Notes under the pieces: model-generated
Seen by the model: only the letters and a program-made list of their open reading frames with translations
Told to the model about the DNA's origin: nothing
Database searches by the model: none
IMG/VR virus record: IMGVR_UViG_3300037454_000603
Span: 15,646 to 79,645 of that record
Length of the DNA stretch: 64,000 nt
Direction: 5' to 3' (one strand)
From: a virus
Taxonomy: Duplodnaviria > Heunggongvirae > Uroviricota > Caudoviricetes
Position numbers and translations under genes: made by a program
Shown here: positions 3,388 through 48,703 of the stretch, piece by piece
How the letters are laid out: every line of letters begins with the position of its first letter
Numbering within the stretch: the stretch's first letter is position 1

Positions 3388-4190
3388 TTAGAATCCAAAA
3401 TCTGAATTATCAATCTCTAATTTATCTAATTCTTTTCTCATTCTCTTTAGAATATCAAGGCCTACCTTTTTCTTTTCTGTCTCTTCTAAATTAGAAGTTG
3501 CTTTAGCCTCTTCACTAAATTTAGCATATAGTTCTTTATCATATTCTTTAATATGTCCCGCAAGCCTATTAATTTCTTTTCTTATCTCATCAAGCGGCAC
3601 AGCAGCGTCAGCAGGACAAGAATAAAAGACAAAATGATTATGTTTGTGTTCAACAATATAGCCTTTATCAATTAATTCCTACTTAGCCTTTCTATATGTG
3701 CTTTCTGCAAGACCATAAGCCTACTAAAAATTTTTAGGAGATAAATTAAATTCCCAACCGTCTTCATTTTCTGCAAAATATAAGTATAACTTAAATCCAG
3801 ATGGAGTTAAATTCTTTGCCGCCTCTCTAATTTCATCAATTTCTATATACATAAACTTCATCCCCTTTTCCTTATATTTAGGTTTACATATTTTTCCAAA
3901 TAACTAATTTGGAATTCCTTTTGTTAAATTATAACCATTGTTATATGTATTGAACTTATCAATCCATAAAATTTCTTTATCATCTAATTCATCGACATTA
4001 CATATCTCTAAAATTTCAAAATTGAAATTTTTTATTCCATATTTTTTAAAATCTAAATACAAAGGATTAGTGTTTAATCCCTCGCTATTTCGATGCTCTC
4101 GCCATCTTCTCTTAATATCTATCGACTATCCAATATAAGATTTACCATTTATTTTGTTTGTTATTTTATAAATTCCTATCATACACTATC
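3388..4190 (-). CDS. GIY-YIG homing endonuclease (MIGIYKITNKINGKSYIG-TAG-S...RRWREH) fused to a C-terminal DnaD/replisome-organiser-like HTH domain. At least five in-frame TAG codons.
   Basis: GIY..YIG and R..EH motifs with TAG at the canonical Gln position; TAA stop at 3388-3390; ORF 3388-3600 is its C-terminus. Confidence 0.7.
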
Positions 4191-4268
4191 CCCTCATAAT
4201 TATTTATTAATTTTATTATAGCATTCATTAGCTCTTTTTATTGCATCAGAAAGTTCAGTCTCTATATC

Positions 4269-5038
4269 CTATTCTTTTACTTCTCGAATAACATAGTCTA
4301 TATAATATCGAACTTCAGTTAATCTAAAGCAAGGAATTTTTGCAAGCTTACTATTTACATAATAACTCTCTTCAAAATCAATTAAATCTAAAACTTTTAA
4401 AAACATTAAACTCTCTCTTATTTTTTTATCATTAGCCGTTTGTTTTGTTAAATTAAAAGCATCTCTAATAGTTTCAAATCTAATATCTTTATAATTTTGT
4501 CCAAGAGAGACACAAGTATCTCTATAACTGCAACACAATAAATAAAGCTTCATTTCTAGTTCACTTGCTTGATACTTTTCATTTAGAGTTTCTAATGTAG
4601 TTTCTGGAACAGGGGTCCACCGAGAAGGTCTACTTATCCAATAAACACCATTCTTTTCTTCTTTATTTCGCAAAGACCAAACTCGAAAAGCTTCTTTTTC
4701 CGCTTCTTTTCGTAAAATTGGTCTAGTAGGAGGATTTTCTCCTGTCGGGTCTAGTTGAGATATAAAATTATTATTTTCAATTTTTTGTTCATATTCCCAT
4801 AAAGGAACATGACTATATTGATTTTGTCCTTTAAAAGTGATTCTTCCAGTATATTCCAAATAATACAAATAGAACTTCACAGTCTTATCTGAAATACCTG
4901 TTGCCTAATAAATTTTAGTAAGGACTAAATCTTTCTATCTAAACATTCTGGTATTATCTGGATAATTTGCTAATCCTGCGATACAAACTAAATAGCTATA
5001 TAATTTCATAGAACTTTTAGCAATTTCAATTTCTGATG
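4269..5038 (-). CDS. Replication-initiator-like winged-helix protein (MKLYSYLVCIAGLANYPDN...). Two in-frame TAG codons. Lies next to the iteron array.
   Basis: ORF 4269-4880 continues upstream through two TAG codons to the ATG at 5036-5038; five 22-bp iterons lie directly upstream. Confidence 0.5.
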
Positions 5039-5149
5039 CAGGCATCGGCGCGGCAGTTTTTAACTAAATTTTCTACATATTGGAATTACCTCCTAATTTT
5101 TGATTTCTATAAAGAAGTGAAATTCCAGAAAAATACTTCAAAAAAAATC

Positions 5150-5270
5150 GGTTCGGAATTTTTAATACCGTTCTCGGAATTTTTAATACCGTTTTTAGAA
5201 ATTTGTAACACCAATTTTAGGAATTTTTAATACCGTTCCTCGGAATTTTTAATACCATATAGTATTACTT
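5150..5270. repeat. Five direct 22-bp iterons, (c/t)CGGAATTTTTAATACCGTT. Each is an imperfect palindrome. Candidate origin or initiator-binding array.
   Basis: Seen in the sequence with 22-bp periodicity; adjacent GC-rich hairpins at 5296-5350. Confidence 0.6.
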
Positions 5271-5395
5271 TCTTTTAAAAAGAAAGTAATCAAAGAAACC
5301 TTCTGCTCGGGCGCAGAAGCAGGCCCTGCTCACCGCTTCGCGGTTCGCAATCTTTAAGTAAGAAGAAAAGGAATTTAGTTTTCCTTAACTTCGCG

Positions 5396-5425
5396 CCGCC
5401 AGACCATTGGCGGCCGGCGCAGTAT
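5396..5425 (-). repeat. GC-rich hairpin element GCGCCGCCagaccattGGCGGCCGGCGC, directly after the TAG stop of small gene 5424-5603
   Basis: Inverted GC repeat; the sequence AATGGTCTGGCGGCGC is shared with 5623 and 3070. Confidence 0.65.
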
Positions 5426-5603
5426 TCTATTTATCCTTTTCTTTTTCAAGTTCATATTCCGCTTTTGCAAGTTCTAAATCAAGCAAATAGCAAAGAAGAG
5501 CTTCTGTTGCACTTAAAGAAGCTTCTTTTTCTGTAATTTCAGCAAGCCCTTTTTCTATTTGAGCTATTAAATGTAAATATGTTTCTATATCCATTTGTCC
5601 CTC
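5424..5603 (-). CDS. Small (59 aa) coiled-coil-like protein MEGQMDIETYLHLIAQIEKGLAEI...
   Basis: ORF below the track threshold; RBS GGAGGG is part of the repeated module AATGGTCTGGCGGCGCAGAATTAATGGAGGGACAAATG. Confidence 0.45.
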
Positions 5604-5622
5604 CATTAATTCTGCGCCGCCA

Positions 5623-5660
5623 GACCATTGGTCCTGTCCGTTGTGGGCGCCGGCGTAACC
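5623..5660 (-). repeat. GC-rich hairpin/SD module (copy of the 3070 module)
   Basis: 30-nt near-identity with 3070-3100. Confidence 0.65.
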
Positions 5661-5723
5661 TAATTTAGTTTTTAAAGCTTAAAGTTAAAACAAAAGGGAT
5701 AGAAAATTCTATCCCTTTATTCC

Positions 5724-6056
5724 TTACTTCTTTGGAGCTTTCTTTGCGGCAACTTCGTCCTCATAAGCCTTTGCTTCAATTTCCAAATCATAACGTTCAA
5801 CAGGCCTCTTACAATCTGTCTTATTATACCAATTTCTTGTTGAACACTTAATTGAAACAATCAAATCTGATGCGCCGCCCTCTTCATCTTTCGCACAACC
5901 AACCTTAATTCCGATTTCATTGGAGGCAGTAAGTCTTACATCTTCATAGCGTTCCTTCAGATACTCAATTATATCTTCAACTACTGTCTGTCTAGCCTTT
6001 TCCTTTATTACTGAAACTTTCTCTTCATCGTACAAATCAAGATAAATCTTTTCCAT
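5724..6056 (-). CDS. Hypothetical protein (110 aa)
   Basis: Intact ORF with no TAG. Confidence 0.55.
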   Translation of the reverse strand: MEKIYLDLYDEEKVSVIKEKARQTVVEDIIEYLKERYEDVRLTASNEIGIKVGCAKDEEGGASDLIVSIKCSTRNWYNKTDCKRPVERYDLEIEAKAYEDEVAAKKAPKK

Positions 6057-6310
6057 TAGTATACCTCTTCCTTTCTAGCCCACATTATATTTGCGCCAAA
6101 ACTTAAATCATCTTCATTAATAGCACTATACTCACGTTCAAGCTCTTCAAGTTCATTTTCATAATGAAGAACTTGTTCCCTATCTCCCCATTCATTACAA
6201 GAGGAAATATAATCTGTCAAAGTGTTCTTCATATAGTCATATGCTCGTTTAGCACTTCTAAAATATATTACGTCAGGTTCTGTATCGAAATGAACAACCC
6301 AAATACTCAT
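6056..6310 (-). CDS. Hypothetical protein (84 aa)
   Basis: Intact ORF; conserved promoter module at 6330-6390. Confidence 0.55.
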   Translation of the reverse strand: MSIWVVHFDTEPDVIYFRSAKRAYDYMKNTLTDYISSCNEWGDREQVLHYENELEELEREYSAINEDDLSFGANIMWARKEEVY

Positions 6311-6459
6311 TTTACTACTTCCTTTCTTAATTTTTTTCTTTTTTTCATCTTTTCTATATATATTATATCATAATTTTTGAAAAAAATCAATAATATTTTT
6401 TAAATTTTTTATTAAAGTTTTATGAATTTGTTTTATTTTTGAAACTAAAAAAATTGAAG

Positions 6460-6531: not shown

Positions 6532-6540
6532 GTATTGCGC

Positions 6541-6578: not shown

Positions 6579-6647
6579 GCACAATTTAATTAGAGGTTCT
6601 AATCGTTTATTTTTCTTTGGTCGTATGAACCTTAAACAGTGGACCGA

Positions 6648-8532: not shown

Positions 8533-8533
8533 A

Positions 8534-10765: not shown

Positions 10766-11029
10766 TTACCACGGCAAATCTTCTGACGTAAGAGGTCCAG
10801 TAAAATCATTTGAAACAATTCCTTCATATCTTGCAACAGTTGCAGCTTCAAAACGATTAATAAATGTTACTCCTTTAAAAAGAAAACCTTCTTCAACATT
10901 ATAAATATGAACATTAAGCATAATAAGTCTATTATAAATTGTGTCGTGTTTGTCGCCAGTCATTATTTGCGGAAAATCTGAATTTTCAGTAAAATAAAAC
11001 TTTACCGCAGGAACTAATAGTCTTACCAT
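10766..11029 (-). CDS. Hypothetical protein
   Basis: Intact ORF; followed by GC hairpin 10746-10772. Confidence 0.5.
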   Translation of the reverse strand: MVRLLVPAVKFYFTENSDFPQIMTGDKHDTIYNRLIMLNVHIYNVEEGFLFKGVTFINRFEAATVARYEGIVSNDFTGPLTSEDLPW

Positions 11030-11547: not shown

Positions 11548-11802
11548 TCAAATAATTTTATTTAAAATACCTTGCGCCGCGACATCATATTGTTTGTTAA
11601 GATTTATATTGCCGAGAATTTTTATTTTCTTAGGGGTCTTAACTATATCATATCCAGAACTTGACCTTGAATAACCATAATCAAAAAGTTCGGTAGCAAT
11701 ATACTCATTTGGAGAACAACTAAAAAGAACTTCATGCTCATATGAAACCACCACTCGAATTATGTCTTGATACAATATAATAGTTCCTTTTTCTAACTGC
11801 AT
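11548..11802 (-). CDS. Hypothetical protein. Its C-terminus (DVAAQGILNKII) is encoded by a copy of the GC-motif/promoter-flank module.
   Basis: About 40-nt identity with the 10735-10775 region. Confidence 0.5.
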   Translation of the reverse strand: MQLEKGTIILYQDIIRVVVSYEHEVLFSCSPNEYIATELFDYGYSRSSSGYDIVKTPKKIKILGNINLNKQYDVAAQGILNKII

Positions 11803-11951
11803 TTTTCTTTCTCTCCTTTTCTATTTTTCTATATATATTATATCATAAATTTTTATTTTTTTCAAATAAAAATCTGAAAAATGTGGATATGGTTTAGATA
11901 TTTTTTACTTACCTTTAGTAAATAAAATTTTTTAAAATGAGGTGAATATAA

Positions 11952-13039
11952 TGGGTTTGATTTACTATAAAGGAGACCCTTATGGTGATGGATATATTGA
12001 TCTTGATGAAAGATTAGAATTTTATGCTATCGAAGGAGAGCCACAGACACCGACTGGTGAAATTATTAAGGAAATTGTTGGCTAGGATGAGCATGGCAAT
12101 CCAATTTATAGAATAAATATTCCAATGGGAACAACAATTGAAAATGCTTTTGCAACTGATACAATTGAGACCCATATTGTAGAAGATAGTGAAAGAGTTC
12201 GACTTCAAGCAGATGTTGGAACTCGTCTTAAATGGGGAAATAGACCAGCTGAAGGTATTATTGCAGGTGGGCTTAGAGTTTTAACGAGATCATCAAGTCT
12301 TGTTGATTAGAGTATTACTAGCGGCGCTATTCCAGTAAATGCCAAATGTAAAGACAATATTGCTAACTACGTTTATAGTGACGTACTTTTTCCTCGTTGC
12401 ACTAATTGTCGTAGCTCAATTAATCCTGTTATAGAATGGTTTTCAGAATCTTCTTATTGGATTGGAAGTGGAACATCTTCAGAACCAGAAAGAAATTGGA
12501 GAGAATATTAGTTCCAATTATCAATGAAGTATTCTCTTAATACATCGAATGATCCAGTTATTGCTTTACCCGGTTATGCCGTGCCTTGGTATCTAGGTTA
12601 GACTCCATTTCCAAGTGGAATAACGATAGATGATAAAAAAATTATTCTATCATCTTCTGTTAATTCAAAAAGTTATTCATCTATTGGAAGTGGAAGAGAT
12701 TATTTACCAGCTTTATTTGGCGGAATATTTATTTTAAATCAGATATTGACTTTTGATGCTAGTACTAGTAGTGCATCTGGTCCAGCAAATGCTAATGATT
12801 TGGTCTATGCAGATGTAACTTGTTATATTACTTCACTTTCTAATAATCCCAATGTAGGTGTAGATGACTATGCGTATATTTGCGATAGGTCAGTATCTAT
12901 GACTCAATCTACTAGTAGTATTTATAACTTATACCTCCCAATGTCAGAGGATGAAGTTCGTTATGCAATGGGTGTTCAGGACTTATTTGACCAAATCTCT
13001 TATGAAGAATATATTCATCATCTTCCTTCGGGTGATTAA
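11952..13039 (+). CDS. Plus-strand hypothetical protein (~362 aa) with four in-frame TAG codons. Contains a Ser/Thr-rich segment.
   Basis: RBS GAGGTGA 7 nt before the ATG at 11952; the frame stays open across the TAG codons to the TAA at 13037-13039; track ORFs 12125-12310 and 12746-13039 are fragments. Confidence 0.5.
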
Positions 13040-15616: not shown

Positions 15617-15672
15617 TTCCTTTCTTATTTTCTATAATAATTATATCATAATTTTTTAAAAATTTCAAATAT
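15617..15672 (-). promoter_or_regulatory. Conserved promoter module (TTGAAA, 17 bp, TGATATAAT)
   Basis: Identical to the copy at 16517-16572. Confidence 0.75.
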
Positions 15673-16991: not shown

Positions 16992-17150
16992 ATTTCTCGG
17001 TTTTACTTCGCTTCTTAATTTTAACGAGTGTTTTCCGCAAAGCCACATATCACTGGGAGCGGCCCAGTGTCGGTGGTAGTTTAAACCGTAAATCCGTGTT
17101 AACCCTCGAATGATTTTATCAACAAGTGAAAGGCAATTCATTAGCCATTT

Positions 17151-17190
17151 TGGTGCCGCAGGGGAGACTTGAACTCCCGACGCCCACGTC
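17151..17190 (-). tRNA. 3' half of a split tRNA (anticodon-stem 3' strand CGTGG, T-arm GGGAG-TTCAAGT-CTCCC, acceptor CTGCGGC, then A-CCA)
   Basis: Pairs with the 5' half at 17659-17694 (acceptor GCCGCGG, anticodon-stem 5' strand CCACG). Confidence 0.6.
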
Positions 17191-17218
17191 TTGGTCCTAA
17201 TAAGAAGAATTGAACTTC

Positions 17219-17632
17219 TCAAATTTTTAAATAGTCTTCATAAGTAATGTGGTTTTTTGCTTCAAGATAATGAAACTCATGATGACAATTAGAACAAAGC
17301 AAAACACATTTTTCTAATTCATCAAAAGCAGCTTGTACCTTAACATTATTACCGCTACAGTACGAGCCAATATTAAACTCTTTTTCATTAGGATTTAAAT
17401 GATGAAATTCCAATGAAGCTTGACATTTATCATAGCCGCATTTTTCACATTTTCCACCCTTCCGTTTTATGAGTTCTTTTTTAAGAGCATGGCGTATTGC
17501 TGTAATTGTCTACGCACGACCTTGGCTATCGCCTTTGTCGTAGCTAGGAGAGCAATCAAAACAATACTTTCTACTTTCACCATGTGGGATGGTTTCAAAA
17601 TCTTTTCCACATATTAAACACTATTTAATCAT
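17219..17632 (-). CDS. HNH endonuclease with an N-terminal zinc ribbon (CSNCHHEFH). Two in-frame TAG codons. Lies between the two halves of a tRNA gene.
   Basis: ATG at 17630-17632 with RBS AAAGGTG; TGA stop at 17219-17221; the 3' exon begins 30 nt later. Confidence 0.65.
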
Positions 17633-17658
17633 TTGTTCACCTTTCTGAATATTAAGTC

Positions 17659-17694
17659 AGCGTGGCGCTCTACCAAATACTGAGCTACCGCGGC
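17659..17694 (-). tRNA. 5' half of a split tRNA (GCCGCGG-TA-GCTC-AGTATTTGGTA-GAGC-G-CCACG-CT...)
   Basis: Complete acceptor 5' strand, D-arm and anticodon-stem 5' strand, then the sequence runs into the HNH ORF. Confidence 0.6.
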
Positions 17695-17849: not shown

Positions 17850-18264
17850 ATATCCCCACTCTAAGTTTATATTGCGAGAGCGGGCACCGCATCTGCCAGT
17901 AGTTTAAAGTCTTCGGTCAGCAAAGGCTCGGACTCTATTTATATTAGCGTCCAATAGTAAGGACGGTTCTTTTAAAAAGGTTTTCTCCTTTAAGCAGTTT
18001 ATTGTTAATACTTAGAACACGTCGATTTAGCCTACGAATCGTCGGCATTAGAGGCTGGGCTATAGCACCACTTTCATTTTCCTCTTTTTTTCTATAAAGA
18101 TTATATCATAAATTTCTTAAAAAGTCAAAATTTCAACTTTTAAGATTTTTATAATCGAAAGGAATCTGGCGGAATTATCAACGGCGCCGCCAGTCACCTC
18201 TTGTTTTAGAAAGGAAGAACAGTTTTAAAACTTGTTCAGGTTTGGAAGAAAAGTGCACCGAGGA

Positions 18265-19065
18265 TTAAATTTTCTCCCACTCTTCATCAGAAATTTTATT
18301 TATTTCCGTTTTTTTATATGGTAAATTTTCAGCTTTACACCATTTACGAATTGCATTATCAGATACTCCATAGTTTTTCCCAATTTGAACGAAAGATAAC
18401 GTTCTAATTAGCTATTTTAATTCTTGCCTATCAGGACGATTTTTTACAATTCGGTGCTATTTTTTATAGCAATCAACACAATAAGTACTCGTATTTCCTA
18501 TCTACTTACCACAAATTATACAAGTATTATTTGTTTGTTTATTATTTATCTATTCATTACTGCTACAAGTATCTTTTTTAAACTTATCTTTGTTTACTAC
18601 TCCATTTTTACGAATAGGATAACTTATACCCTCTTGAATCCAAGTCTCTCCAATATTTATACTGCTTATAGTTCGCTAAGATACATTAAACTATTTACCA
18701 ATATCTTCTTGACTCAATGTTGTAGTTGATAAAAGAGTAATTATATCCTAAGCCTACTATTTAGTTAATTTTACTGGTAAAGAAGTATTGCCGCCATCAG
18801 TTAGATTATATCCATTTAATGGATTATGACTATCATAATATTTTATCCAGTACTTTTCCCTATTATTTAATTCTTCAAGGCTACATTCCTCTACAACTTC
18901 AAATAAAAAGTTATCAATTCCATATTTTCTCATTGCTCGGTATATAGGATAATCATCTGTCTAATAATGCCCTCTATGTGCTTTCCAGCGTCTGCAAATA
19001 TTTTGAGACTATCCTATGTATATCTTTCCATTTATCTAATTAGTAATTTTATAAATACCGATCAT
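18265..19065 (-). CDS. GIY-YIG homing endonuclease (MIGIYKITN-TAG-INGKIYIG-TAG-S) with a C-terminal HTH tail (...WCKAENLPYKKTEINKISDEEWEKI). Multiple in-frame TAG codons.
   Basis: Motifs read by hand; TAA stop at 18265-18267; promoter-like module at 18090-18140. Confidence 0.65.
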
Positions 19066-19194
19066 TATTACTCACCTCAAATACAAGTAACAATTAAAAT
19101 CGAACCCTCTAAGAAAATAGAACCAATTTCTTCTATTCGTTGAACTATAATAAATATAATGCACTATCCATTAGACTACACGGGCATATCAAAG

Positions 19195-25442: not shown

Positions 25443-26573
25443 TTATTTCAACCCCAAAAATTTTACAAGTTCTTTTGCAGTTTTTCCTTCAATAGAAAGT
25501 TTATCATCGTAAGCTAAATAAGCCCAATTTGTATGCTCATTTAAGTTCTTTTTAACCCAATCAGAAAATTCTTTTCGACTCGCGGCGCAGTGTTCTTTTT
25601 TCCAATTTTCAACCATTTCTTTAACAGCTAAAGTCATACCGATAGCAGCTTTATACTGTAAGCTAACTTTATGAAAGAAGTCACGGTATTGACCAAAATA
25701 AGCTAAAAACTCATCTTGCTCATTTTCAAGTATCATTGCCAGTGCTCTTTCTACTGTTAGAACGCCGTTATTCGCCATTCTATGGAGTTCTACATACTTC
25801 TCAGTTTTGATTTTAACTCTATCGAAATCTGCATCACAAACTACTATTCCTTCATTATTGTCGCCCATATTTTTAACAAATTCACAATAATCTCTTTTGC
25901 TATTAAAATAATAATGTTTGGGGGTCTCAAAACCGCAAGCATCTCCAATCATTTCAACCGCTTCAGGATAAAGTTCTAAAAGAGTTCTCATATCTCTAAT
26001 TGAAAGCAGATAGAGAGCAGGCTCAGGGTAATCTAAAACGATACGCGTAACAGGGCTTACAAGCTCAAAAGTCCAACACTTTATCTTATTATAGTTCTTA
26101 AAATTAGATAGAGGACAAACTGCTTCAAAAAGTTCTCCATAGGTTTTGTAAGGGCTTGCTGGATTATTAATTTCGGCTTTGAAGGCGTCAATACACCCAT
26201 TGGTCGACAAATGCCATTTACCACGAGCATACCAAGCAGACATTATAGAGCCATCTATTTTTTCACTTGCCCACGCGGTAGGCCATTCAATCTGCGCTGC
26301 GTGAGACTCTCCAAGATTAAAAAATCTTTCAAAGGCGAAACGAACAACTTTAAAATTCTGAGTTGAATCGAGAATAAGCCCTCTTGCTTCTCGGCATATT
26401 TTTTCATTAAAATCTGAGTTAATTTGGTTATACTTAAATAATACAAATCCATCATCCCAGCTTATTTTTAAGTTATATGGAGCACCAGAAAGGAGAGCCT
26501 CCCAATCTTTATGCTCATGTATGAATTTAACTATTTCTAACATCTTCTTCTCTCCATTTCCATTTATATCCAT
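25443..26573 (-). CDS. T4 Rnl1-like RNA ligase (motif I EKIDGS; FFNLGE; motif IV EGIVVC; motif V KIKTEKY)
   Basis: Motif order and spacing match RNA ligase 1 by inspection. Confidence 0.7.
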   Translation of the reverse strand: MDINGNGEKKMLEIVKFIHEHKDWEALLSGAPYNLKISWDDGFVLFKYNQINSDFNEKICREARGLILDSTQNFKVVRFAFERFFNLGESHAAQIEWPTAWASEKIDGSIMSAWYARGKWHLSTNGCIDAFKAEINNPASPYKTYGELFEAVCPLSNFKNYNKIKCWTFELVSPVTRIVLDYPEPALYLLSIRDMRTLLELYPEAVEMIGDACGFETPKHYYFNSKRDYCEFVKNMGDNNEGIVVCDADFDRVKIKTEKYVELHRMANNGVLTVERALAMILENEQDEFLAYFGQYRDFFHKVSLQYKAAIGMTLAVKEMVENWKKEHCAASRKEFSDWVKKNLNEHTNWAYLAYDDKLSIEGKTAKELVKFLGLK

Positions 26574-26688
26574 ACGCAGTTTTTCTATCTCCTTTACATA
26601 CTAAACGAATAGAATTTGCTGCACTTCTTGTTTTTCCTATTGCTAAAGCAGCTTCCTCACAAGCTTCATATGTAGCTATAAAATTTCC

Positions 26689-27410
26689 CTATAAGTCATA
26701 TTGATTAACAGGCCTTGCTCCTGTTTTTCGATATGGCTTTGGAGCTGGTTCTCCATGTTTTACAAATAAATATTTTAACGCTCTGCCGCCAGTAGATAGA
26801 GCAGTACTTACCATACTTTCTGTCATATTTAACGCATGAGCAGCAGCACGACCGGACTCATAAGTATTCAAAAAATTACCTTTTAAGTCATAACAGTCAA
26901 TGCAAATTTTTCTTGAAGATTGCATAGCTTTTGTTGCTTTTTCTTTTTGCCTTTGCTTTGCTTCTTCTGACCACCCTTTGAAACCAGATAGAGCATAATA
27001 CACTGTATTACGTCTACATTCATATTCTTTGGCAATTTCATCAACACTAAAGCCTTTGTCCCACAGATTCTTAAATTCCTAATAGTTATACTTCTGCGCA
27101 CCTTCGCCACCAATTGTCGAGTTATACCCTTCTTGGTAAGAGTTATATTCTGCTATCCAATAACATTCTCTATCAGAAAGCGCAGAATTATCTTCTACGT
27201 ATTCAAGCTCTTTTGCTTGAAAATGATCAATACCATATTTTCTTATTGCTTTATAAAAATGTGTATCATGACGGGAATCTCCCTCAGAAGAAAAAGCTCT
27301 ACGTTTATGTTCATGCCATCTATGTTCTATTGTAGAAATTGTCTATCCAATATAAACCTTATCGTTTATATCATTAGTAATTATATAAATGTATCCCATT
27401 TATATCGCCT
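26689..27410 (-). CDS. GIY-YIG homing endonuclease (MGYIYIITNDINDKVYIG-TAG-T...HRWHEH) with a C-terminal NUMOD-like DNA-binding tail. Two in-frame TAG codons.
   Basis: Hand translation; ORF 26689-27003 is its C-terminus. Confidence 0.65.
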
Positions 27411-37017: not shown

Positions 37018-37105
37018 TGGCGCCGCAGGAAAGATTCGAACTTTCAGACTCTTACAAGCCGATGCTTTTCAAGAGCACGCCTCCTCCCCTCTAAGGTACT
37101 GCGGC
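37018..37105 (-). tRNA. tRNA-Ser (UGA), type II, CCA encoded
   Basis: Acceptor GCCGCAG/CTGCGGC; loop CTTGAAA; long variable arm. Confidence 0.7.
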
Positions 37106-37117
37106 AAATACAAGACA

Positions 37118-37230
37118 CTATTAATTAAACTCCGCTCTACCGACTGAGCTATTCTCCCATAAAATAGGAGAAGATGGATTCGAACCATCGACACGAGGCT
37201 TAAAAAGCAAATTAAGCGAGTTGCTGTAGT
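37118..37230 (-). tRNA. Permuted or fragmented type-II tRNA. A 3' half (anticodon-stem 3' strand AACTC, long variable hairpin GCTTAAtttgctttTTAAGC, T-arm GATGG-TTCGAAT-CCATC, acceptor TTCTCCT) sits upstream of its cognate 5' half (GGGAGAA, D-stem GCTC/GAGC, anticodon-stem 5' strand GAGTT). The flanks are 9-bp complementary (TAGTGTCTT/AAGACACTA).
   Basis: The halves complement each other but are in reverse genomic order. Confidence 0.4.
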
Positions 37231-37321: not shown

Positions 37322-37990
37322 TTAAATTTTATCCCATTCTTCATTGGAATAAGAATTAATGTCTTTTTTTCTTCTTGGAAGTCCATATTTATCACACCAT
37401 TTTCTTACTGCATTATCGGATACATTACAATTTTTTCCTATTTCACTAAAAGAAAATTGACGTATCCTTTGCTTAAGTTCTTCTCGTGTAAAAGGACATT
37501 TCCATTTCTTCTCTTTCTTTTCCTCTTTTTCTTCTTTTTTTCTTATGGGATAAGATTGATTCTTTTGCTTCCACATTTTCCCATTGTTTATCTAGGATAT
37601 TAAACAATGACTAACGTTATATTTCTTTGCAATTTCTTCCCCAGTAAGAGAAGCGTTTTTTAAATCATATACAATTTCATTTGCAATATTCCAGTTAATT
37701 TTGTACTACATATTTTCAATAGTACTCATATTATATCCATTCGGGGTCATTGTATTATATTTATTTATATAATATTTTTCTTTATCATTAAGTTCTGTCA
37801 AGGCGCATTCTTCTATTACCTCGAAAGAGAAGTTCTCTTTTCCATACTCTCGCATTGCCTAATATAATAAAGTATTCTTTGTATTCATTTTATTCTAATG
37901 TTCTCTCCATCTTCTTCTAATATCATTGGACTATCCAATATAAGACATTCCATTAGATTTATTAGTAACTTTATAAATTCCTATCATTTA
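37322..37990 (-). CDS. GIY-YIG homing endonuclease (MIGIYKVTNKSNGMSYIG-TAG-SNDIRRRWREH-TAG) with the shared C-terminal HTH tail. Four in-frame TAG codons.
   Basis: Hand translation; ORF 37322-37576 is its C-terminus. Confidence 0.7.
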
Positions 37991-38889: not shown

Positions 38890-39008
38890 TCGAGATGACA
38901 GGACTTGAACCTGCAGCTTCTTGCTCCTGGCGCCAATGGCTGGAGTTGCACCAGCTAATACTCTTCACTGACCAAAGCAAGCCGTCTACCAAATTGACTT
39001 ACATCTCG
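38890..39008 (-). tRNA. Aberrant ~119-nt tRNA-like gene. Acceptor (CGAGATG/CATCTCG) and T-arm are good, but there is a ~45-nt extra segment between the D-arm and T-arm. Anticodon unresolved.
   Basis: CTTGC...GCAAG brackets a 50-nt insert. Confidence 0.4.
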
Positions 39009-39018: not shown

Positions 39019-39780
39019 TTAAATTAAAGCCCATTCTTCATCTGTATAGTTATTTATATCTGTCTTTCTTCTAGGTAGTTTTTCAAAATCACACCATTTG
39101 CGAATAGTATTATCAGAAACATTATATATTTTTCCTATTTGAGTAAAAGGTTTTGTACGAATTAATTGTTTTAACTCTTCCCTTGAAGGTCGCTCAACTG
39201 TTCTAAAAAATAACTAATTACATTTTACACATCTAGTAGATTTATAATCTATTTCTGCTCCACAATCTATACAATATTTTTGTTCTCTTTTATCTCCATG
39301 TCTTTTTTTAGATATTGCTTGAATGGGATATTCTCTATCATGTTTCCAATATCGTCCAGTATTAATACCTTGTATCATTTCTACAGATATATTCCACTTT
39401 TCTGCTATTTCTCTATGAAACATATCTGTCTTTTCTAAATCATTTATTATACCAATAATTTTTTCCTTATTAATTTCATTTCCAGAGCTATCTCCGCCAA
39501 TAGTCAAATTATATCCCTCAAAAAATGAATTATACTATTTAATATAGCTTTTTTCTTTTTCATTCAACTCAGAAACTAAACATTCTTCAAGAACTTCAAA
39601 AGTAAAATTTTCAAAACCGTATTTTCTTATTGCTCTGTATAAAGGTTTATCATAATTATGATCATTAGGATTAAATGCAGTTGATTTATGACCTCTCCAT
39701 CTTTTCTTTATATCTTTGCTCTATCCAATATAAACTTTTCCGTTAATCTAGTTTGTAATCTTATAAATTCCTATCATATT
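39019..39780 (-). CDS. GIY-YIG homing endonuclease (MIGIYKITN-TAG-INGKVYIG-TAG-SKDIKKRWRGH) with a zinc ribbon and the shared HTH tail. In-frame TAG codons.
   Basis: Hand translation; ORF 39214-39507 is an internal piece. Confidence 0.65.
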
Positions 39781-39890
39781 TACCACTCTCCATACATCAT
39801 TAACCACTCATTTAATATAAAATTAAGGGAAGAGTGAGTGGTTACTCTTATCAATAGGTTTGCAATTCCTATCTATCCCCTAATATCAAT

Positions 39891-40260: not shown

Positions 40261-41040
40261 TCAAATTTTTTTCCAATCTTCTTCAGTATAATGCTCTATA
40301 TCTGCTTTTCTATAAGGAAGATTTTCATTTTTACACCATTTGCGAATTGCATTATCTGTAACTCCAAACATTTCTCCAATTTTAGTAAAAGGCAAAGTTT
40401 TAATTAATTGTTTTAACTCTTCTCGATTAGGTCGATTTACTTTACGATTTTTTAATCTATTACATTTATCACATCTAGTAGAACCAAACAATATTTTAGT
40501 ACCACAATCAATACAATACGTATCTGGATTTTTAATTTTCTTAAAATATTCTTCTTTTTCTCTTAATGGATACTGTAAAATATCTTTCACCCAACTCTTA
40601 CCAGTATTAATATTAGATATTAAAGACTAATCGACTTGATACTTCTGTGCTAAATCATTCTATGAAATTTCAGTATAAAGTAAAGCCTTGATTATTTCAT
40701 CGACCTATACCTCATTTAATTTCAAAGGATGTGGAGTATTGCCTCCGTCATCCTAATTATAACCATAGTCATTATCATTGGAATGATAATAACTAATCCA
40801 ATATTTTTCTCTATCATTCAATTCTTCAATAAAACAACTTTCAATTATCTCAAATCGAAAATTCTCTATTCCATATTTTCTTATTGCCCTATATAGTGGA
40901 TAATTATAGCCCTTATTGTTTGGATTATGGGCAGCACATTTATGATTTTGCCATCGTTTTTTAATATTTCTACTCTACCCAATATAAATTTTTCCATTAA
41001 TTAAATTAGTAATTTTATAAATTCCTATTTCTACATTCAT
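40261..41040 (-). CDS. GIY-YIG homing endonuclease (MNVEIGIYKITNLINGKIYIG-TAG-S) with a zinc ribbon and the HTH tail. In-frame TAG codons.
   Basis: ORF 40261-40590 is its C-terminus; terminator hairpin at 41090-41112. Confidence 0.65.
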
Positions 41041-41147
41041 ATAATCGTCTCCTACAAATTATTTCCTACAACAATATAATATACAAAAGGAAGAGGGTAG
41101 GAGCCTCTTATCATAGAGTGATCAAATTCTACTATCCTTTTGTATTT

Positions 41148-41216
41148 ATGTCACAAGATAGAATCGAACTATCTTAAAATGCTTATGAAGCATTTTTCTT
41201 ATCCATAAGTTGTGAC
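41148..41216 (-). tRNA. tRNA with anticodon CAU (Met, or lysidine-modified Ile) and a reduced D-loop
   Basis: Acceptor GTCACAA/TTGTGAC; anticodon stem AATGC/GCATT; loop TTCATAA; T-arm GATAG-TTCGATT-CTATC. Confidence 0.55.
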
Positions 41217-41380
41217 ATACCGCCTTATTTCATACTACGGAGACGGTGCCGCGAAATATTTACTTTTCAAATATTTAAAGTCAATCAGTTTAGCCTTCGC
41301 TGATAGCCAAGCTTAGACCGCTTTCTTTTGCGACGCCCTAGCTACTCGTCGTTTGATTCGTGCACAATCAAGAACCGCAT

Positions 41381-41650
41381 TTTTAACTTCTAAGATAAGG
41401 ACTCCTGCCGCGGCACCGTCCGACTTATGTTTTTAACTTTGAGGATAAGGACTAGCACGTAGCTTATTGTCCGACCTTTAATCTAGAACTTTTTAACTTT
41501 AAGGGATAAGGGCTCTTCTAGTTCGCCCGACCTCTTCTAATTAAGTGCGCTTTTAACTTACGATAAGGTGCGCTATCCGACGGAAACCTTTTGTTAACTT
41601 TTATAGAGGATAAGGGACTAACTCGGCTCTAGATCTTCTGTCCCGACCTA
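41381..41650 (+). repeat. Tandem array of five ~50-60-bp diverged repeats. Each is TTTTAACTT, a few nt, RGGATAAGG, then a hairpin with a co-varying stem (GGAC/GTCC, GGGC/GCCC, GGGAC/GTCCC) and a variable loop, then GACC.
   Basis: Seen in the sequence; compensatory stem changes point to a structural RNA or DNA element. Confidence 0.55.
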
Positions 41651-42686: not shown

Positions 42687-42777
42687 TGCTCCCTCCGAGA
42701 CTCGAACTCGGACACCTTTCGATACCTGTTCTTGAGACAGGCGCGTCTGCCATTTCGCCAAGGGAGCATTTGATTGG
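42687..42777 (-). tRNA. tRNA-Leu (CAA), type II
   Basis: Acceptor GCTCCCT/AGGGAGC; loop CTCAAGA; long variable arm. Confidence 0.7.
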
Positions 42778-42782
42778 GCGAC

Positions 42783-42866
42783 TGAGATTCGAACTCAGGA
42801 CAGGTTTCCCATGCGCGGGTCAAAGCCGCGTGTGTTCAGCCACTTCACCACCGCCCAGTTTTTTTG
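42783..42866 (-). tRNA. Type-II tRNA with anticodon UUG and U1-A72 (a Gln anticodon on a long-variable-arm body)
   Basis: Anticodon stem CGCGG/CCGCG; loop CTTTGAC; 15-nt variable arm. Confidence 0.5.
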
Positions 42867-45156: not shown

Positions 45157-45660
45157 TTACTCTTCAACAAGCTTGTCTGAAAGGTCTTTAATCTCATCTT
45201 TAACTTTTTCTAACTCTGCCTTGAGAATTTCAACAATTGTCGCAATGGACTCATCAGTAATTTCTGTCTCAGGGTCTTCTGGGTCTTTTTTCTTTAAAGA
45301 ACCTAAGTTATAGCTCGCTGCAGAACTTTTAATTATTGTAGATTTATTTTTATCTTCAATATTTTCAATTAAAGTTCTAAGAGTTGCTGCTTGCTTAGAA
45401 AGCTTGCAAATTTGCTTTTCAGTTTCATTCTGCTTAATAGCCTCTTGTTCCTCGACGGGAGGATAGGGGTATCTAGGTGGAGGAGGAGGCACTAACCAAG
45501 CATAAGGAGGATAAGGAGGTGGAGGAGGTGGAATAAAATAACAATCATCTTTACCATCCTTATCATGATGTTTATGATGACAACCACAATCTTCTCCATA
45601 ACTAGATCCTGTTTGATACTGAGCTAGGTCTGAATTATAAACAAGGTCGTTTATAGGCAT
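45157..45660 (-). CDS. Proline-rich protein (PPPPPPYPPY ... PPPPPRYPYPP) with a coiled-coil C-terminus
   Basis: Intact ORF. Confidence 0.5.
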   Translation of the reverse strand: MPINDLVYNSDLAQYQTGSSYGEDCGCHHKHHDKDGKDDCYFIPPPPPPYPPYAWLVPPPPPRYPYPPVEEQEAIKQNETEKQICKLSKQAATLRTLIENIEDKNKSTIIKSSAASYNLGSLKKKDPEDPETEITDESIATIVEILKAELEKVKDEIKDLSDKLVEE

Positions 45661-45807
45661 ACATTATCACCTCTTTTAAAATATTTTAATAAGAGTACCA
45701 ACCTCTTATTCTAACAAAAAGTCTTTTTTACTATCTTTTCCTCTAACTTTTTCTAAATAGAAGAGCCGCGAGTCCAATTTTCTGGACTGGCGGCTCGGTG
45801 TTATTTA

Positions 45808-46500
45808 TCAGTGTGCGCTTGTATCAAATTCATCTACATATTTCCAATAATATCCTTTATATAACTATCCGTCATTAAAATGATGTTTTAGAATTGTACC
45901 TTTTAATCCTAAAGAAGAGGCCGCTTGTCTATTTGAAGAAAAAGTATTTATTAAATTCCAATCTTTATCATATTGTAATACTGTTTTACCTTTTCCTCCG
46001 CTAGTATGCGGTTCAATTCTATTTACAGGTCTATTATCATCTGAAAATCTCCACTAATAATTTCCTGCACTGTAACATCCGCCTCTTGCTGCTCTCTAAA
46101 TATTAGCATTTTCAATACCTGTTTTTGCCGAAGCTTCTCCACAAGATTTAAATTCTGCAACAAAATTTCCCTCTAAATTATACTATTTTATAGGTCTAGC
46201 ATTAAAAGAAGTACCATTTCCTTCTCCTTTTCCTTCCGTCATGTTATATCCATTTTTATAACTATCATAATATGATATCCAATATGCTTCTCTTAATATT
46301 AAATCTTCTTCTGGGCACTCTTCAATAACTTCAATATTAAAATTATCAATGCCATATTTACGCATAGCAAAATATAGATGAGTATTCTTATTCTAATAAG
46401 AAGATTTATGTTCTTTCCAACGGTGTTCTATATTATATCTAGTCATTCCGATATAAAGTTTGTTATTTATTATATTTGATATCTTATAAATATATCCCAT
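45808..46500 (-). CDS. GIY-YIG homing endonuclease (MGYIYKISNIINNKLYIG...HRWKEH) with C-terminal NUMOD-like repeats. Five in-frame TAG codons. Ends with TGA.
   Basis: Hand translation; ORF 46183-46365 is an internal piece. Confidence 0.65.
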
Positions 46501-46528
46501 TTTCAAAACTCAACTCCTTTATTACAAT

Positions 46529-46831
46529 TTAATTCTCCTTTAGAAATTTCTCTAATTTGTTCCATTCTTCATTTAAGATTTTAATAACTTCCAAGCCCTC
46601 TTTTTCTTCTTTCCAAATTGGTAAACAATAACCAGTCTTTCCTCTTAATTTCGCACCGCGAGACCGACAAAAAATTAAGAAATCGTTATATTTTAGTCCC
46701 AAAAGTCGCGCCGCGAGTACATAATATGAACTGGTATAATTCTCTCCAAGATTTTTTATCGCTCCGTGCCCAATAAAAGCAATTCTATAATATTTTTCAT
46801 CAGCGGTTTTACAAAGCTCAAAACCTTTCAT
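46529..46831 (-). CDS. Hypothetical protein
   Basis: Intact ORF. Confidence 0.45.
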   Translation of the reverse strand: MKGFELCKTADEKYYRIAFIGHGAIKNLGENYTSSYYVLAARLLGLKYNDFLIFCRSRGAKLRGKTGYCLPIWKEEKEGLEVIKILNEEWNKLEKFLKEN

Positions 46832-47151
46832 ATATTAACCCCTTTCTGAATTTCTGCCATTTTCTTCCATTCTTTTTGTGTAAGATTACAAATTTTACAA
46901 AGGGCGGCATGATAATCTCCATTAGAGTTAATTCTTTGAATTTGTTTTATAAAATGTTCTGCGCCACGAATTGGCTTATTAAAATCAATTTTTTCTTCTA
47001 TTTCTGGCTCGATTTTAAAATCAGGAATTATATACTTTGAAACAGTTGAAGGACTAACACCAACAATTTCAGCAACTCTTTTCTTAACTCCTAATTCAAG
47101 ATAAAGTTTATTTATTTGAATAATAGTATCTTCATCTATTTTTCTTCCCAT
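46828..47151 (-). CDS. HTH DNA-binding protein (ELGVKKRVAEIVGVSPSTVSKY)
   Basis: HTH motif in an intact ORF. Confidence 0.5.
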   Translation of the reverse strand: MGRKIDEDTIIQINKLYLELGVKKRVAEIVGVSPSTVSKYIIPDFKIEPEIEEKIDFNKPIRGAEHFIKQIQRINSNGDYHAALCKICNLTQKEWKKMAEIQKGVNI

Positions 47152-47153
47152 TT

Positions 47154-47441
47154 TTATCCTTCCTTCATAACTTTAAGTAATATCTCCTGAAGTTCATTTT
47201 TATCCATATAAATTGTTTTAATACCATTTTTAATGCTAGGATTCATAAGAAAAATTTGTCTATCTCTAAAATAAGTTCCTTTGTATTTATCCTTTAGAAG
47301 AATCGCAAGCCCAGGAGTTACATTAATGAGCTTATAGCCTTTATTCGCCCCAAGAATATTACAAAGCTTTGAAAACAAATATTCACATTCTTTATCTTCT
47401 ATTGTTGGTTTTTCTATTCTAAATAAATCCCAAAAACTCAT
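47154..47441 (-). CDS. Hypothetical protein
   Basis: Intact ORF; promoter module at 47460-47500. Confidence 0.45.
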   Translation of the reverse strand: MSFWDLFRIEKPTIEDKECEYLFSKLCNILGANKGYKLINVTPGLAILLKDKYKGTYFRDRQIFLMNPSIKNGIKTIYMDKNELQEILLKVMKEG

Positions 47442-48141
47442 AATTTTCCCTCCTTTATATATTAATTATATCATAAAAAATTAAAAAAGTCAACTAAAAA
47501 GTTGACCTTTAAAATATTAATTATTCCATTTCCCAATATATGCCTATATAATTATCGAATTCCTTAGTTTTATCATTATAGACCTTCAAGACCTCATTGT
47601 TTATAATACGAAAACTATAAGGAGTACATCGCAATTTTTTAGTCATTTTTTTAAACCATTCATCATAATCATAAAAGGAAGGAAAAACAGTATAATTCTT
47701 ATTCAATGACGATCCACCTTTCAATAGATGTATAAATATCTTTATCACATAGAACATAGGTTTCTGCCCATTCCGCTTGACTTAGAAGACAACCAAGCAT
47801 AGATTTAGCATTTACCTTGAATTGAGTACTTCCGTCAATAAGATAAACATCTGCATCTATCTTATCTATAATATTACAAAAATCTTTTACATCTGTAAGA
47901 GTATCAAGTCTAATCTTATTCTTCATTTTACATTACCTCACTTTTTTTTAAATAAATCTAAAAATATATCAAACCCCGCAATATTAAGTAGAAAAATAAT
48001 AAAAGCCAATATAATAATTTTCATACTTTTATCTCCTTTCTATAAAAATTATAACAAAAATTTTTATAAAAATCAATAATTCGCCGCGCTTCCATTTTTT
48101 ACCAATAAAAGTAAAATTCTGGTAGCGCGGCGCATAGTAAT

Positions 48142-48390
48142 TTAAAGAACCTCTTCAAAACCAAAAACACAATATCCTTCTTTTAATCCATATCCATTTA
48201 AAACATAATTAATTTGATAAAGTTTTTCATTAATTGGATATGTAACAGGAGTTAAATCTTCATAACAAACAAAACTAATATAGTCACCTTTTTGATATCC
48301 TCTGTCATTTTCTCGAACTTCAAATCTTTTACTACCTTCCATGATTGCTGCCGCAAAAGGTCGTTGAATTTTTATTGTATGTGTCATTTT
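48142..48390 (-). CDS. ASCH/DUF3850-like small protein (MTHTIKIQRPFAAAIMEGSKRFEVRENDRGYQKGD)
   Basis: Start assumed at the internal ATG within ORF 48142-48621. Confidence 0.45.
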   Translation of the reverse strand, partial: KMTHTIKIQRPFAAAIMEGSKRFEVRENDRGYQKGDYISFVCYEDLTPVTYPINEKLYQINYVLNGYGLKEGYCVFGFEEVL

Positions 48391-48703
48391 ATCCCACCCT
48401 TTGATTATATCCATATTCATCACTATGGTAGTATTTTGTCCAATATTTTTCTTTTTCTGTCTATTCTTCTTTTGGACAAACCTCAACAATTTCCCAAGTA
48501 AAATTTTCAAGTCCTTCGTTCCACATAGCATCATAAAGCTATCCTTTAATTCTTTCAATATTGCATCCACGTTTAGCATGTGTACGCCAACGAGATAGAA
48601 AAGAAGCAGATGTTTTTCCAATATAAACTTTTTGATTCTTAATATTGGTTATTTTATAAATACCACCGTTATCTTTGTCTCCACTTAAAACTCTTTTAAA
48701 CAT
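48366..48703 (-). CDS. Short GIY-YIG nuclease (GGIYKITNIKNQKVYIGKTS...RWRTHAKRGC). Two in-frame TAG codons. Apparently in frame with the upstream TAG-rich coiled-coil ORF.
   Basis: Hand translation; TAA stop overlapping the ASCH-like gene. Confidence 0.5.

Follow-up and report, generated by a model that had tools for sequence, protein, structure and literature searches.

GIY-YIG endonuclease genes with a shared C-terminal tail in the tRNA clusters of a TAG-recoded gut phage

The stretch analysed here (the window) comprises 64,000 nucleotides (nt), positions 15,646 to 79,645 of IMG/VR virus record IMGVR_UViG_3300037454_000603, and derives from a gut phage of ca. 179 kb that uses TAG as a glutamine codon. 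Selfish endonuclease genes, about ten in number, have colonised this phage heavily. Four of them encode GIY-YIG proteins that share a C-terminal tail and lie within the two tRNA clusters of the window, and the analysis centres on this tail family, whose members likely target the tRNA genes of phages.

Endonuclease genes of the window and their tRNA neighbours

Every long open reading frame (ORF) of the window is carried by the minus strand, and the G+C content is 32%. The coverage of this strand by ORFs of at least 100 codons, counted stop to stop, rose from 31 to 48 kb once TAG was treated as a sense codon. ARAGORN found 26 tRNA genes, two of them with the anticodon CUA, and Rfam added a 119-nt tRNA at 38890-39008 and a weak one at 41149-41216. 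Both suppressor tRNA(CUA) genes have the U1-A72 pair typical of tRNA-Gln, the suppressor tRNAs of related phages are likewise nearest to tRNA-Gln, and the conserved glutamine of the YIGQ motif in the tail family is encoded by TAG in 26 members, by CAA in 25 and by CAG in 2. Since Gln-like suppressor tRNAs are present and TAG and CAA interchange at the YIGQ position, TAG encodes glutamine in this phage; the two marks of 'code 15', TAG at a conserved glutamine and a Gln-like tRNA(CUA), are both found. Phages of 'code 15', with TAG as glutamine, have already been described (Borges et al. preprint; phAss-1 paper). The standard code makes the genes of the window look broken, and for annotation this means that endonuclease genes and several tRNAs are missed or broken when it is applied.

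The endonuclease genes, named below by their first position, and the gene of an RNA ligase that holds a further endonuclease domain are as follows (aa, amino acids; HTH, helix-turn-helix):

3388-4197 (-): GIY-YIG protein whose middle is HTH_36-like and whose C-terminus is a coiled coil; tail absent, no nearby tRNA (Pfam; PHROGs)
18265-19065 (-): tail-family GIY-YIG protein, 266 aa, with 12 in-frame TAG codons (Pfam; family alignment; phrog_7168 over the full length)
26527-27399 (-): GIY-YIG protein with two NUMOD1 repeats (I-TevI/Seg type), between the ORF 27499 homologue and the Rnl1 ligase gene (Pfam)
37322-37987 (-): tail-family GIY-YIG protein, 221 aa, without the Zn ribbon (Pfam; family alignment)
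39019-39777 (-): tail-family GIY-YIG protein, 252 aa, best database match 81% identical (Pfam; family alignment)
40261-41040 (-): tail-family GIY-YIG protein, 259 aa (Pfam; family alignment)
45808-46500 (-): GIY-YIG protein with two NUMOD1 repeats, at the site of an AAA_33 kinase-like gene of relatives (Pfam)
48389-49447 (-): protein of 344-352 aa with a transmembrane segment, a long coiled coil and a C-terminal GIY-YIG domain (aa 261-342) (Pfam)
50796-52457 (-): Rnl2-type RNA ligase with an intein at aa 110-330 (Pfam RNA_ligase, Intein_splicing and HNH)
52454-53389 (-): endonuclease-like protein, 311 aa, with 9 TAG codons, repeated Zn-ribbon-like motifs and a weak DUF2726 nuclease-like end (PHROG 374, 559 and 9084; Pfam)

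The first-pass annotation had listed eight GIY-YIG ORFs, and all eight are real when TAG is read as glutamine, with the correction that one of them starts at 26527 and not at 26689. In a search with hidden Markov models, the eight scored 34.9-48.4 bits against PF01541, the gathering threshold of which is 22.6, and all of them matched PHROG homing-endonuclease families. The common C-terminal tail that had been noticed in four of them (18265, 37322, 39019 and 40261) was also borne out: these proteins are ca. 50% identical over their full length, and their tails have the consensus REELKQLIRTxPFxxIGKxYxVSDNAIRKWCxxxxLPxRK. The family, which has 4648 database matches at E < 1e-5, is built of an I-TevI-like GIY-YIG domain, an HTH, a Zn ribbon and a second HTH that constitutes the tail, the Zn ribbon being absent from the 37322 protein. 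The invariant columns of the family alignment are I, Y, N, N, Y, I, G, R, W, H, E, G, Y and N. An AlphaFold model (mean pLDDT, the predicted local distance difference test score, 87.5) was examined for a family member that shares 81% identity with the 39019 protein. It has four consecutive domains, and its catalytic domain superposes on I-TevI (1mk0 and 1ln0) with template modelling (TM) scores of 0.84-0.86 on the target and root-mean-square deviations of 1.9-2.0 Å. Sequence and fold searches of the PDB with the DNA-binding half of the family gave no match.

Among the genes without the tail, 26527 and 45808 are ordinary mobile genes of the Seg/I-TevI type, and 3388 is probably another, although no syntenic relative came to light for it. 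The earlier description of all eight as free-standing homing endonucleases holds for the seven that have a DNA-binding domain (HTH, Zn ribbon or NUMOD1) but fails for 48389, which has none and encodes a conserved membrane and coiled-coil core protein. This protein had 430 database matches at E ≤ 1e-10; the 120 homologues listed are nearly all ca. 340-370 aa long, with 90-100% query coverage and 44-100% identity, and an orthologue occupies the same place in three relatives (L125, L126 and L127). Since all relatives seen retain it at full length, 48389 is not a mobile endonuclease gene, and the mobile GIY-YIG genes number seven rather than eight, with 3388 as a probable seventh. The 52454 gene is a further endonuclease-like gene that the first-pass annotation had missed, whereas the HNH domain that it reported within the Rnl2 intein was recovered, with a score of 21.3 bits just under the Pfam cut-off of 21.4.

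It had also been stated that most of the eight genes lie next to tRNA genes. In fact, four of the eight are within the tRNA clusters (the chance of at least four being so placed is p ~0.018), and these are exactly the four tail-bearing genes. Upstream of the start codon of 18265, tRNA-Gln(CUG) lies at a distance of 128 nt, and tRNA-Asn is found 414 nt downstream of its stop codon. The 37322 gene has tRNA-Arg(ACG) 36 nt upstream and a suppressor tRNA 6 nt downstream, 39019 has tRNA-Leu(UAA) 111 nt upstream and an insert-bearing tRNA-Pro(UGG) 10 nt downstream, and 40261 has a tRNA-Met-like gene (41149-41216) 108 nt upstream and tRNA-Glu(UUC) 155 nt downstream. The gaps of 6 and 10 nt agree exactly with those given before, but a tRNA ca. 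7 nt from 18265 was found neither by ARAGORN nor by Rfam, even at E ≤ 10 on that region. The tRNA features next to the tail-family genes that are taken up below are:

19164-19185 (-): remnant of tRNA-Arg(UCU), its first 22 nt only, followed by the leader of 18265; identical to the 5' end of tRNA-Arg(UCU) in L128
37239-37315 (-): suppressor tRNA(CUA), Gln-like, with U1-A72, directly downstream of 37322 (ARAGORN)
38890-39008 (-): tRNA-Pro(UGG) of 119 nt with a 45-nt insert in the anticodon loop (Rfam tRNA, 49.3 bits; ARAGORN with introns allowed)

The tail module and variable occupancy in related phages

The association between tail and tRNA was surveyed in 79 IMG/VR loci retrieved with the family alignment, together with ENA and Logan contigs, and the proteins were classed by a tail profile. 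A tRNA gene on the same strand within 250 nt accompanied 42 of the 50 tail-positive genes outside the window as compared to only 5 of the 38 tail-negative GIY-YIG genes (Fisher p=1.4e-11). In 25 of those 42 a tRNA is present on both sides. The downstream gaps of the tail-positive relatives cluster at 0-37 nt and the upstream gaps at 77-133 nt. No full-length close relative of the family was found in any deposited phage; what occurs in GenBank phages is the Zn ribbon and tail module by itself, as follows:

Bacillus phage Thrax1: on an annotated HNH endonuclease, within a tRNA array
Bacillus phage PBC2: on an annotated HNH endonuclease, within a tRNA array
Bacillus phage McCartney: on an annotated HNH homing endonuclease, the gene ending 3 nt before tRNA-Asp
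Lactobacillus phage Semele: on an annotated HNH endonuclease, within a tRNA array
Pseudomonas phage phiHQ: on a hypothetical protein, 84 nt after tRNA-Asn
Enterococcus phage phiSHEF13: on a GIY-YIG protein, beside tRNA-Pro

Since the tail is also carried by HNH proteins in tRNA arrays, the association with tRNAs travels with the tail and not with the nuclease domain, and the Zn ribbon and tail, being present on annotated HNH endonucleases as well, become a candidate for a portable reader of tRNA-gene DNA.

These observations bear on the possibility that tRNA arrays are merely permissive, that is, highly transcribed regions with short dispensable spacers and no protein genes to break, in which endonuclease genes of any specificity accumulate. 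The great diversity of the flanking tRNA isotypes is in keeping with it, as are sites of variable occupancy away from tRNAs, such as that upstream of the Rnl1 gene with three different occupants. A permissive array does not, however, account for an association that is specific to tail-carrying proteins (42/50 versus 5/38) and that follows the tail onto another nuclease class, the HNH endonucleases, nor for insertion points that are fixed, either after a tRNA 3' end or at nt 35/36 of tRNA-Gly and tRNA-Glu genes of different sequence. We therefore regard this explanation as improbable.

For comparison of occupied and empty sites, the relatives (L-numbers) were taken from IMG/VR and from a number of ENA and Logan contigs. 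One contig, from a close relative, contributes both L021 and L126, and its neighbouring proteins are 50-94% identical to those of the window. A megablast search with 24 kb against GenBank phages gave no match, and IMG/VR held one syntenic relative only, the distant L001; a tRNA-Arg sequence pattern tried as a probe for relatives was rejected, as it retrieved unrelated phages. Domains, positions, presence or absence and the covariation of the leader RNA described below were observed directly in this analysis, and the presence of the genes proved sporadic: the synteny comparison that the first-pass annotation had proposed yielded relatives without the genes at 37322, 18265, 26527 and 45808.

At the junction that holds 37322 in the window, L021 and L023 lack an intervening gene, and tRNA-Arg(ACG) is separated from the suppressor tRNA by 5 nt; when the window was compared to L021, tRNA-Arg showed few differences and the suppressor allele was strongly divergent. 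At a junction of tRNA-Gln and tRNA-Gly, L114 has a family member exactly between the two tRNAs, which are 2 nt apart in L113. The upstream tRNA-Gln is identical in L114 and L113, and the tRNA-Gly is diverged in its 5' half, with compensatory stem changes, and identical in its 3' half. Compared with L130, L131 has a clean insertion of 856 nt that contains a family member and interrupts tRNA-Gly(UCC) in its anticodon loop; flanking identity is 100% on one side and 99.5% on the other, and the neighbouring protein P0245 is identical in both. At the site of 18265, three relatives (L128, L130 and L131) carry tRNA-Arg(UCU) directly behind tRNA-Gln(CUG) and no endonuclease gene. In L128 this tRNA stands 8 nt after tRNA-Gln(CUG); the window keeps its first 22 nt, and the remainder is absent. 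There is no endonuclease gene between tRNA-Met and tRNA-Glu, the site of 40261, in L126, but the region is rearranged there.

Variable occupancy was also seen at the genes of the Seg/I-TevI type. The site of 26527 is empty in L131 and holds another endonuclease-like gene in L130 and a 107-aa ORF in L128. At the site of 45808, L125 and L126 have an AAA_33 gene between the same neighbours (12348-13343 in L126). The DNA junctions of this replacement were mapped: the last 8 codons of the 45808 gene (45808-45831) are the 3' end of the AAA_33 gene, and EFDTSAH is the C-terminus of both proteins. A Pfam AAA_33 domain is often the mark of a polynucleotide-kinase-like enzyme. Despite the loss of the AAA_33 gene, the window retains Rnl1, Rnl2 and a 188-aa ORF (50176-50742) that is metallophosphoesterase-like by eye only. 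The 52454 gene is 99.4% identical to its counterpart in L125 (6767-7732), as against 41-88% for neighbouring genes, and is absent from L126; this near-identity amid divergent neighbours points to a recent transfer. Three relatives lack the Rnl2 intein: in L125, L126 and L001 the ligase is 307-317 aa long and matches only the part after the intein. As a separate observation, L125 has at 11633-12736 an IS605-type TnpB gene (OrfB_IS605, Cas12f1-like_TNB) between homologues of the window ORFs 47699 and 47154, and this gene is not present at the corresponding place of the window.

The same sites allow the question of whether the tail-family genes are domesticated, i.e. kept to maintain, exchange or amplify tRNA and suppressor genes rather than purely selfish. 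Such a role has been reported for the T4 endonuclease SegB (PMC13096335). The retention of 39019 at the same site in the window, L021 and L025, and the position of 37322 against a suppressor tRNA whose allele differs strongly from that of L021, would fit it. On the other hand, presence and absence vary among close relatives, the losses of tRNA-Arg(UCU) at 18265 and of the AAA_33 gene at 45808 are costs, and the window shows no tRNA segments amplified in tandem. Domestication thus appears quite unlikely.

Leader RNAs, proposed homing and inserts in tRNA genes

Many members of the tail family have a conserved leader of ca. 100 nt, which extends from the upstream tRNA to the start codon. This leader is predicted to fold into a Y shape, in which a closing stem surrounds two hairpins and hairpin 2 has a loop complementary to the ribosome-binding region. 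A covariance model, seeded with four hand-registered leader copies and run in two rounds (R1 and R2), found 12 copies at E ≤ 1e-5, three of which are in the window:

39822-39884 (-): leader RNA of 39019; R1 84.9 and R2 74.1 bits; 9-nt pairing between loop and ribosome-binding site
41083-41143 (-): leader RNA of 40261; R1 68.1 and R2 54.7 bits; loop CTCCTAC pairs with GTAGGAG at the ribosome-binding site
53430-53495 (-): leader RNA upstream of 52454; R1 40.9 and R2 57.2 bits; loop CCCATA pairs with TATGGG at the ribosome-binding site

Since the third copy precedes the unrelated 52454 gene, the leader goes with endonuclease genes in general. Standard pairs fill 96% of the cells of the leader alignment, compensatory changes were observed in 16 of the 19 pairs, and the covariation score was 0.70 as compared to 0.24 for shuffled and at most 0.20 for slid controls. 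Pairing of 6-9 nt between the loop and the ribosome-binding site was found in 11 of 13 leaders, while cross-pairings between leaders had a mean of 4.3 nt. The complement of the hairpin-2 loop is often present in two copies, of which one overlaps the ribosome-binding site and the other lies 10-20 nt upstream of it, as in the window regions 39778-39821, 41041-41082 and 53390-53429 (-); this doubling suggests a two-state switch, in which one copy may be a decoy. RNAalifold found no structure on a plain MAFFT alignment of the leaders because the elements are out of register in that alignment, and the covariance model missed a leader variant recognised by eye, 'GGGGAGC...GAGATTAAG'. Judging from these pairings, the leader probably represses the translation of its endonuclease gene. 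Translational repression by leader structure is known for endonuclease genes of T4. The conserved leader RNA thereby offers a testable case of a selfish gene restraining its own expression.

Two modes of insertion were seen in the tail family. In the first, the cassette lies between tRNAs, starting within 0-15 nt of the 3' terminus or CCA of the upstream tRNA and stopping a few nt short of the following one; in the second, it lies inside an anticodon loop, where tail-family genes are found in relatives and an HNH gene in the window. Based on these results, the following scheme is proposed. The Zn ribbon and tail would bind tRNA-gene DNA, and in a mixed infection with a related phage the enzyme would cut the allele that has no copy, at a tRNA gene or a tRNA-tRNA junction. 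Recombinational repair would then copy the cassette, that is, leader, ORF and often the adjacent tRNA allele, into the break. Expression would be restrained by the in-frame TAG codons, which would require the suppressor tRNA of the phage itself, and a second time by the structured leader, with its hairpin loop pairing to the ribosome-binding site. Elements of the 37322 type could in this way move suppressor tRNAs, and hence an altered genetic code, between phages. GGTTCRAWTTT motifs upstream of 18265 and other genes had been taken for remnants of cut T loops, and this candidate was withdrawn; since the same motifs lie in the own leaders of the intron-type cassettes, a break in the T loop is no longer claimed.

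We consider it likely that the tail-family genes are selfish endonuclease genes that target phage tRNA genes in the manner of SegB with a different DNA-binding module. The first-pass annotation had suggested that the tRNA clusters are the homing targets of the GIY-YIG genes, and this stands for the tail family, given the survey, the empty tRNA-tRNA junctions and the L131/L130 cassette, but not for 26527, 45808 and 48389. Several points weigh against it. The 39019 gene has a copy in all available relatives, and because of this its mobility rests on faster divergence only (69% identity versus 94% for a neighbouring gene); orthologues are at the same place in L021 and L025. The tRNA isotypes beside the genes are very diverse, which implies either member-specific specificities or the reading of one generic tRNA feature. 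The survey loci were collected by family similarity and the phages differ in having tRNA arrays at all, so that the tail-negative genes are an imperfect control, and several of the close relatives are other assemblies of similar phages, so that there are fewer events than loci. As for the leader, its alignment was fitted to the model, a procedure biased towards the structure. Finally, we infer the cleavage specificity of every member, like the timing of expression and the repair pathway.

Inserts within tRNA genes were examined in the window and in the relatives. The HNH ORF that had been placed inside a tRNA is indeed there: 17219-17632 lies in a 465-nt insert in an anticodon loop and matches the HNH family phrog_2255 (E=7e-26), with weak HNH matches only in Pfam (E 0.1-0.9).

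17151-17694 (-): tRNA-Phe(GAA), interrupted after nt 35 by an insert of 465 nt (17192-17656) (ARAGORN with introns allowed)

The ARAGORN call of tRNA-Leu(CAA) for this gene was rejected, as there is no long variable arm; with the insert boundaries shifted by 2 nt, the joined halves give tRNA-Phe(GAA) and the insert ends in ACCA. The insert starts with CTTAATA and ends with TATTAGG-ACCA, its ends forming a 7-bp acceptor-like stem followed by ACCA, with a T-arm-like hairpin before the 3' strand and no D-arm-like hairpin. Members of the tail family were found inside otherwise intact tRNA-Gly(UCC) or tRNA-Glu(UUC) genes in five retrieved loci and in further IMG/VR contigs, the latter obtained by means of the conserved 3' end of the insert. 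These inserts are 847-862 nt long and, like the HNH insert of the window, follow the second anticodon base, or in L131 the base before it. Their termini are conserved (5' GTTTYATTAG and 3' ...CNCCA), and their ends form a 7-bp stem, one position of which covaries (U-A, C-G, G-C), and then N-CCA, with a D-arm-like hairpin after the 5' strand and a T-arm-like hairpin before the 3' strand. In two of the five cases ARAGORN reported the whole insert as a tRNA with a 780-nt intron. No Rfam intron match, and hence no ribozyme, was found in the window (E ≤ 1) or in the L131 insert (E ≤ 10), and the non-coding RNA of the inserts amounts to ca. 51 nt for the HNH insert of the window and ca. 115 nt for L131. 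Because there is no Rfam match and too little non-coding RNA for a ribozyme, the inserts are not assigned to the group I introns.

One reading is that the insert-bearing tRNA-Phe, tRNA-Gly and tRNA-Glu are dead genes and that the tRNA-like ends of the inserts are leftovers of an earlier host tRNA without any role. We give this reading nearly an even chance. It accords with the absence of a ribozyme, with the fact that L128, L130 and L131 live without the split tRNA of the window at that position, and with the true destruction of tRNA-Arg(UCU) in the window. Dead genes would not be expected, however, to keep both tRNA halves intact in all of at least eight contigs, nor would functionless insert ends be expected to keep the pairing of their stem through compensatory changes (U-A, C-G, G-C) and to retain the N-CCA end. 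A more tentative possibility, and one that we hold with some doubt, is that the cassettes with tRNA-like ends are a new kind of mobile, ribozyme-less intervening sequence of tRNAs that is spliced. Host RNase P, acting at the 5' junction, and a 3'-end-processing nuclease, acting after CCA, could excise the cassette exactly, which would free an endonuclease mRNA with tRNA-like ends; the leftover tRNA halves, with 3'-OH and 5'-phosphate, could be sealed in the anticodon loop by the phage ligases Rnl1 and Rnl2. If this were true, it would give the RNA ligases of phages a role in splicing, explain the presence of two RNA ligases per phage, and represent a third route of tRNA splicing beside self-splicing introns and the archaeal/eukaryotic endonuclease pathway. 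A search of the accessible literature found no paper on ribozyme-less endonuclease inserts in phage tRNAs.

The insert of tRNA-Pro(UGG) has a counterpart in the distant relative L113 (ca. 10836-10960), where a 49-nt insert stands at the same place with a covarying hairpin, GCTGG/CCAGC versus AGTGG/CCACT. The suggestion that the endonucleases explain the aberrant tRNAs therefore fits only in part: tRNA-Arg(UCU) was cut down to 22 nt, but the tRNA-Pro insert is conserved and the halves of tRNA-Phe are intact. The insert-bearing tRNA-Pro and the split tRNA-Phe look like maintained forms and not like damage. At the position of tRNA-Pro, L021, L025 and L029 have a tRNA-Pro-like gene with an odd T arm that was missed by ARAGORN, and a PF04308 RNase H-like gene is next to or near tRNA-Pro in the window, L021, L025 and L113.

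Several other features of the tRNA clusters were recorded. Between tRNA-Ser and the suppressor tRNA, 37101-37215 (-) gave a weak match to YrlA, a Y-RNA-like family (34.8 bits versus a gathering threshold of 69), and in it the 3' part of a tRNA precedes the 5' part of a tRNA. The interval 41300-41650 (-), which lies between tRNA-Tyr and the Met-like tRNA gene, contains four tandem hairpin repeats of ca. 55-65 nt, GGTCGGRC...GTCCTTATCC...AAGTTAAAAA, with no Rfam match. The tRNA-Gln(UUG) at 42774-42857 (-) has a long variable arm (84-86 nt), which is unusual for tRNA-Gln, and is kept in L021 (2913-2998). A non-coding block of 159 nt at 16992-17150 (-), between the split tRNA and tRNA-Glu, is near-identical in L130 (16626-16784) and L131 and recognisable in L128; this conservation makes an unknown small RNA probable. 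A perfect sigma-70 promoter (TTGACT, 17 nt, TATAAT at 18100-18128) was found within 17860-18128 (-), and downstream of it lie ca. 230 nt of G+C-rich, structured-looking sequence with no ORF and no Rfam match.

Comparison with known systems

The closest parallel is SegB, a free-standing GIY-YIG homing endonuclease in the tRNA cluster of T4, which recognises the T-loop DNA GGTTCRANTCC and cuts after CCAR at tRNA 3' ends and whose homologues are widely associated with tRNAs of many isotypes (PMC2330249; PMC13096335). It is reported to drive tRNA-Tyr amplification against the Septu defence, and recent work ties it to escape from tRNA-cleaving defences (PMC13096335). The arrangement in T4 (tRNA-Ile, 41 nt, segB, 5 nt, tRNA-Arg) resembles that of 37322, the gaps of which are 36 and 6 nt, and many tail-family cassettes start right after the CCA of the upstream tRNA, as in CCAATAGGGGAGC. 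The two share the GIY-YIG catalytic domain (hhalign probability 97.6% over SegB residues 4-91), and tail-family genes too are absent from close relatives and stand beside many tRNA isotypes. In contrast, nothing aligns beyond residue 91 by hhalign (111 by BLASTP), and SegB lacks the HTH, the Zn ribbon and the HTH tail. The tail family, moreover, occurs in TAG-recoded gut phages, with TAG used as a sense codon in most members, and many members have a structured leader or, in some cases, sit in anticodon loops. The tail family probably works like SegB but, since the homology is confined to the catalytic domain, is not a member of the SegB family. It may represent a second and much larger solution to the job of SegB, in gut phages and by way of a different DNA-binding module.

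I-TevI has a similar catalytic fold (Foldseek E=4e-6; sequence E=1.6e-14) and the same modular build, in which a linker and a Zn-binding element separate the nuclease from a helix-turn-helix. A hairpin in its mRNA that covers the ribosome-binding site is known to delay translation, a form of control that recalls the leader of the tail family. Unlike I-TevI, the tail family has an extra helix-turn-helix in the middle, its DNA-binding parts do not match those of I-TevI by sequence or fold, and its genes are not within a self-splicing intron. The HNH endonucleases of Bacillus and Lactobacillus phage tRNA arrays have a Zn ribbon and tail module that is 35-57% identical and lie between tRNAs, but their nuclease is HNH and not GIY-YIG and their phages use the standard code. 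They are known from annotation only, and a search of the accessible literature found no functional study of them.

The inserts resemble the group I introns of tRNA anticodon loops in having a fixed position and a homing-endonuclease ORF and in occupying cognate tRNA genes of different phages. They differ in that they have no ribozyme, with ca. 50-115 nt of non-coding sequence and no Rfam intron match even at E ≤ 10, and in that they end with N-CCA and not with G, their ends folding as an acceptor stem with D- and T-arm-like hairpins. As for the in-frame TAG codons, a delay of endonuclease production by recoded stops has been raised for an intron endonuclease of the Agate phages (Borges et al. 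preprint). Taken together, the kind of system is already known from SegB; what is new is the DNA-binding module, the leader RNA, the TAG-dependent coding and the tRNA-like inserts, the last of which could be more than a variation.

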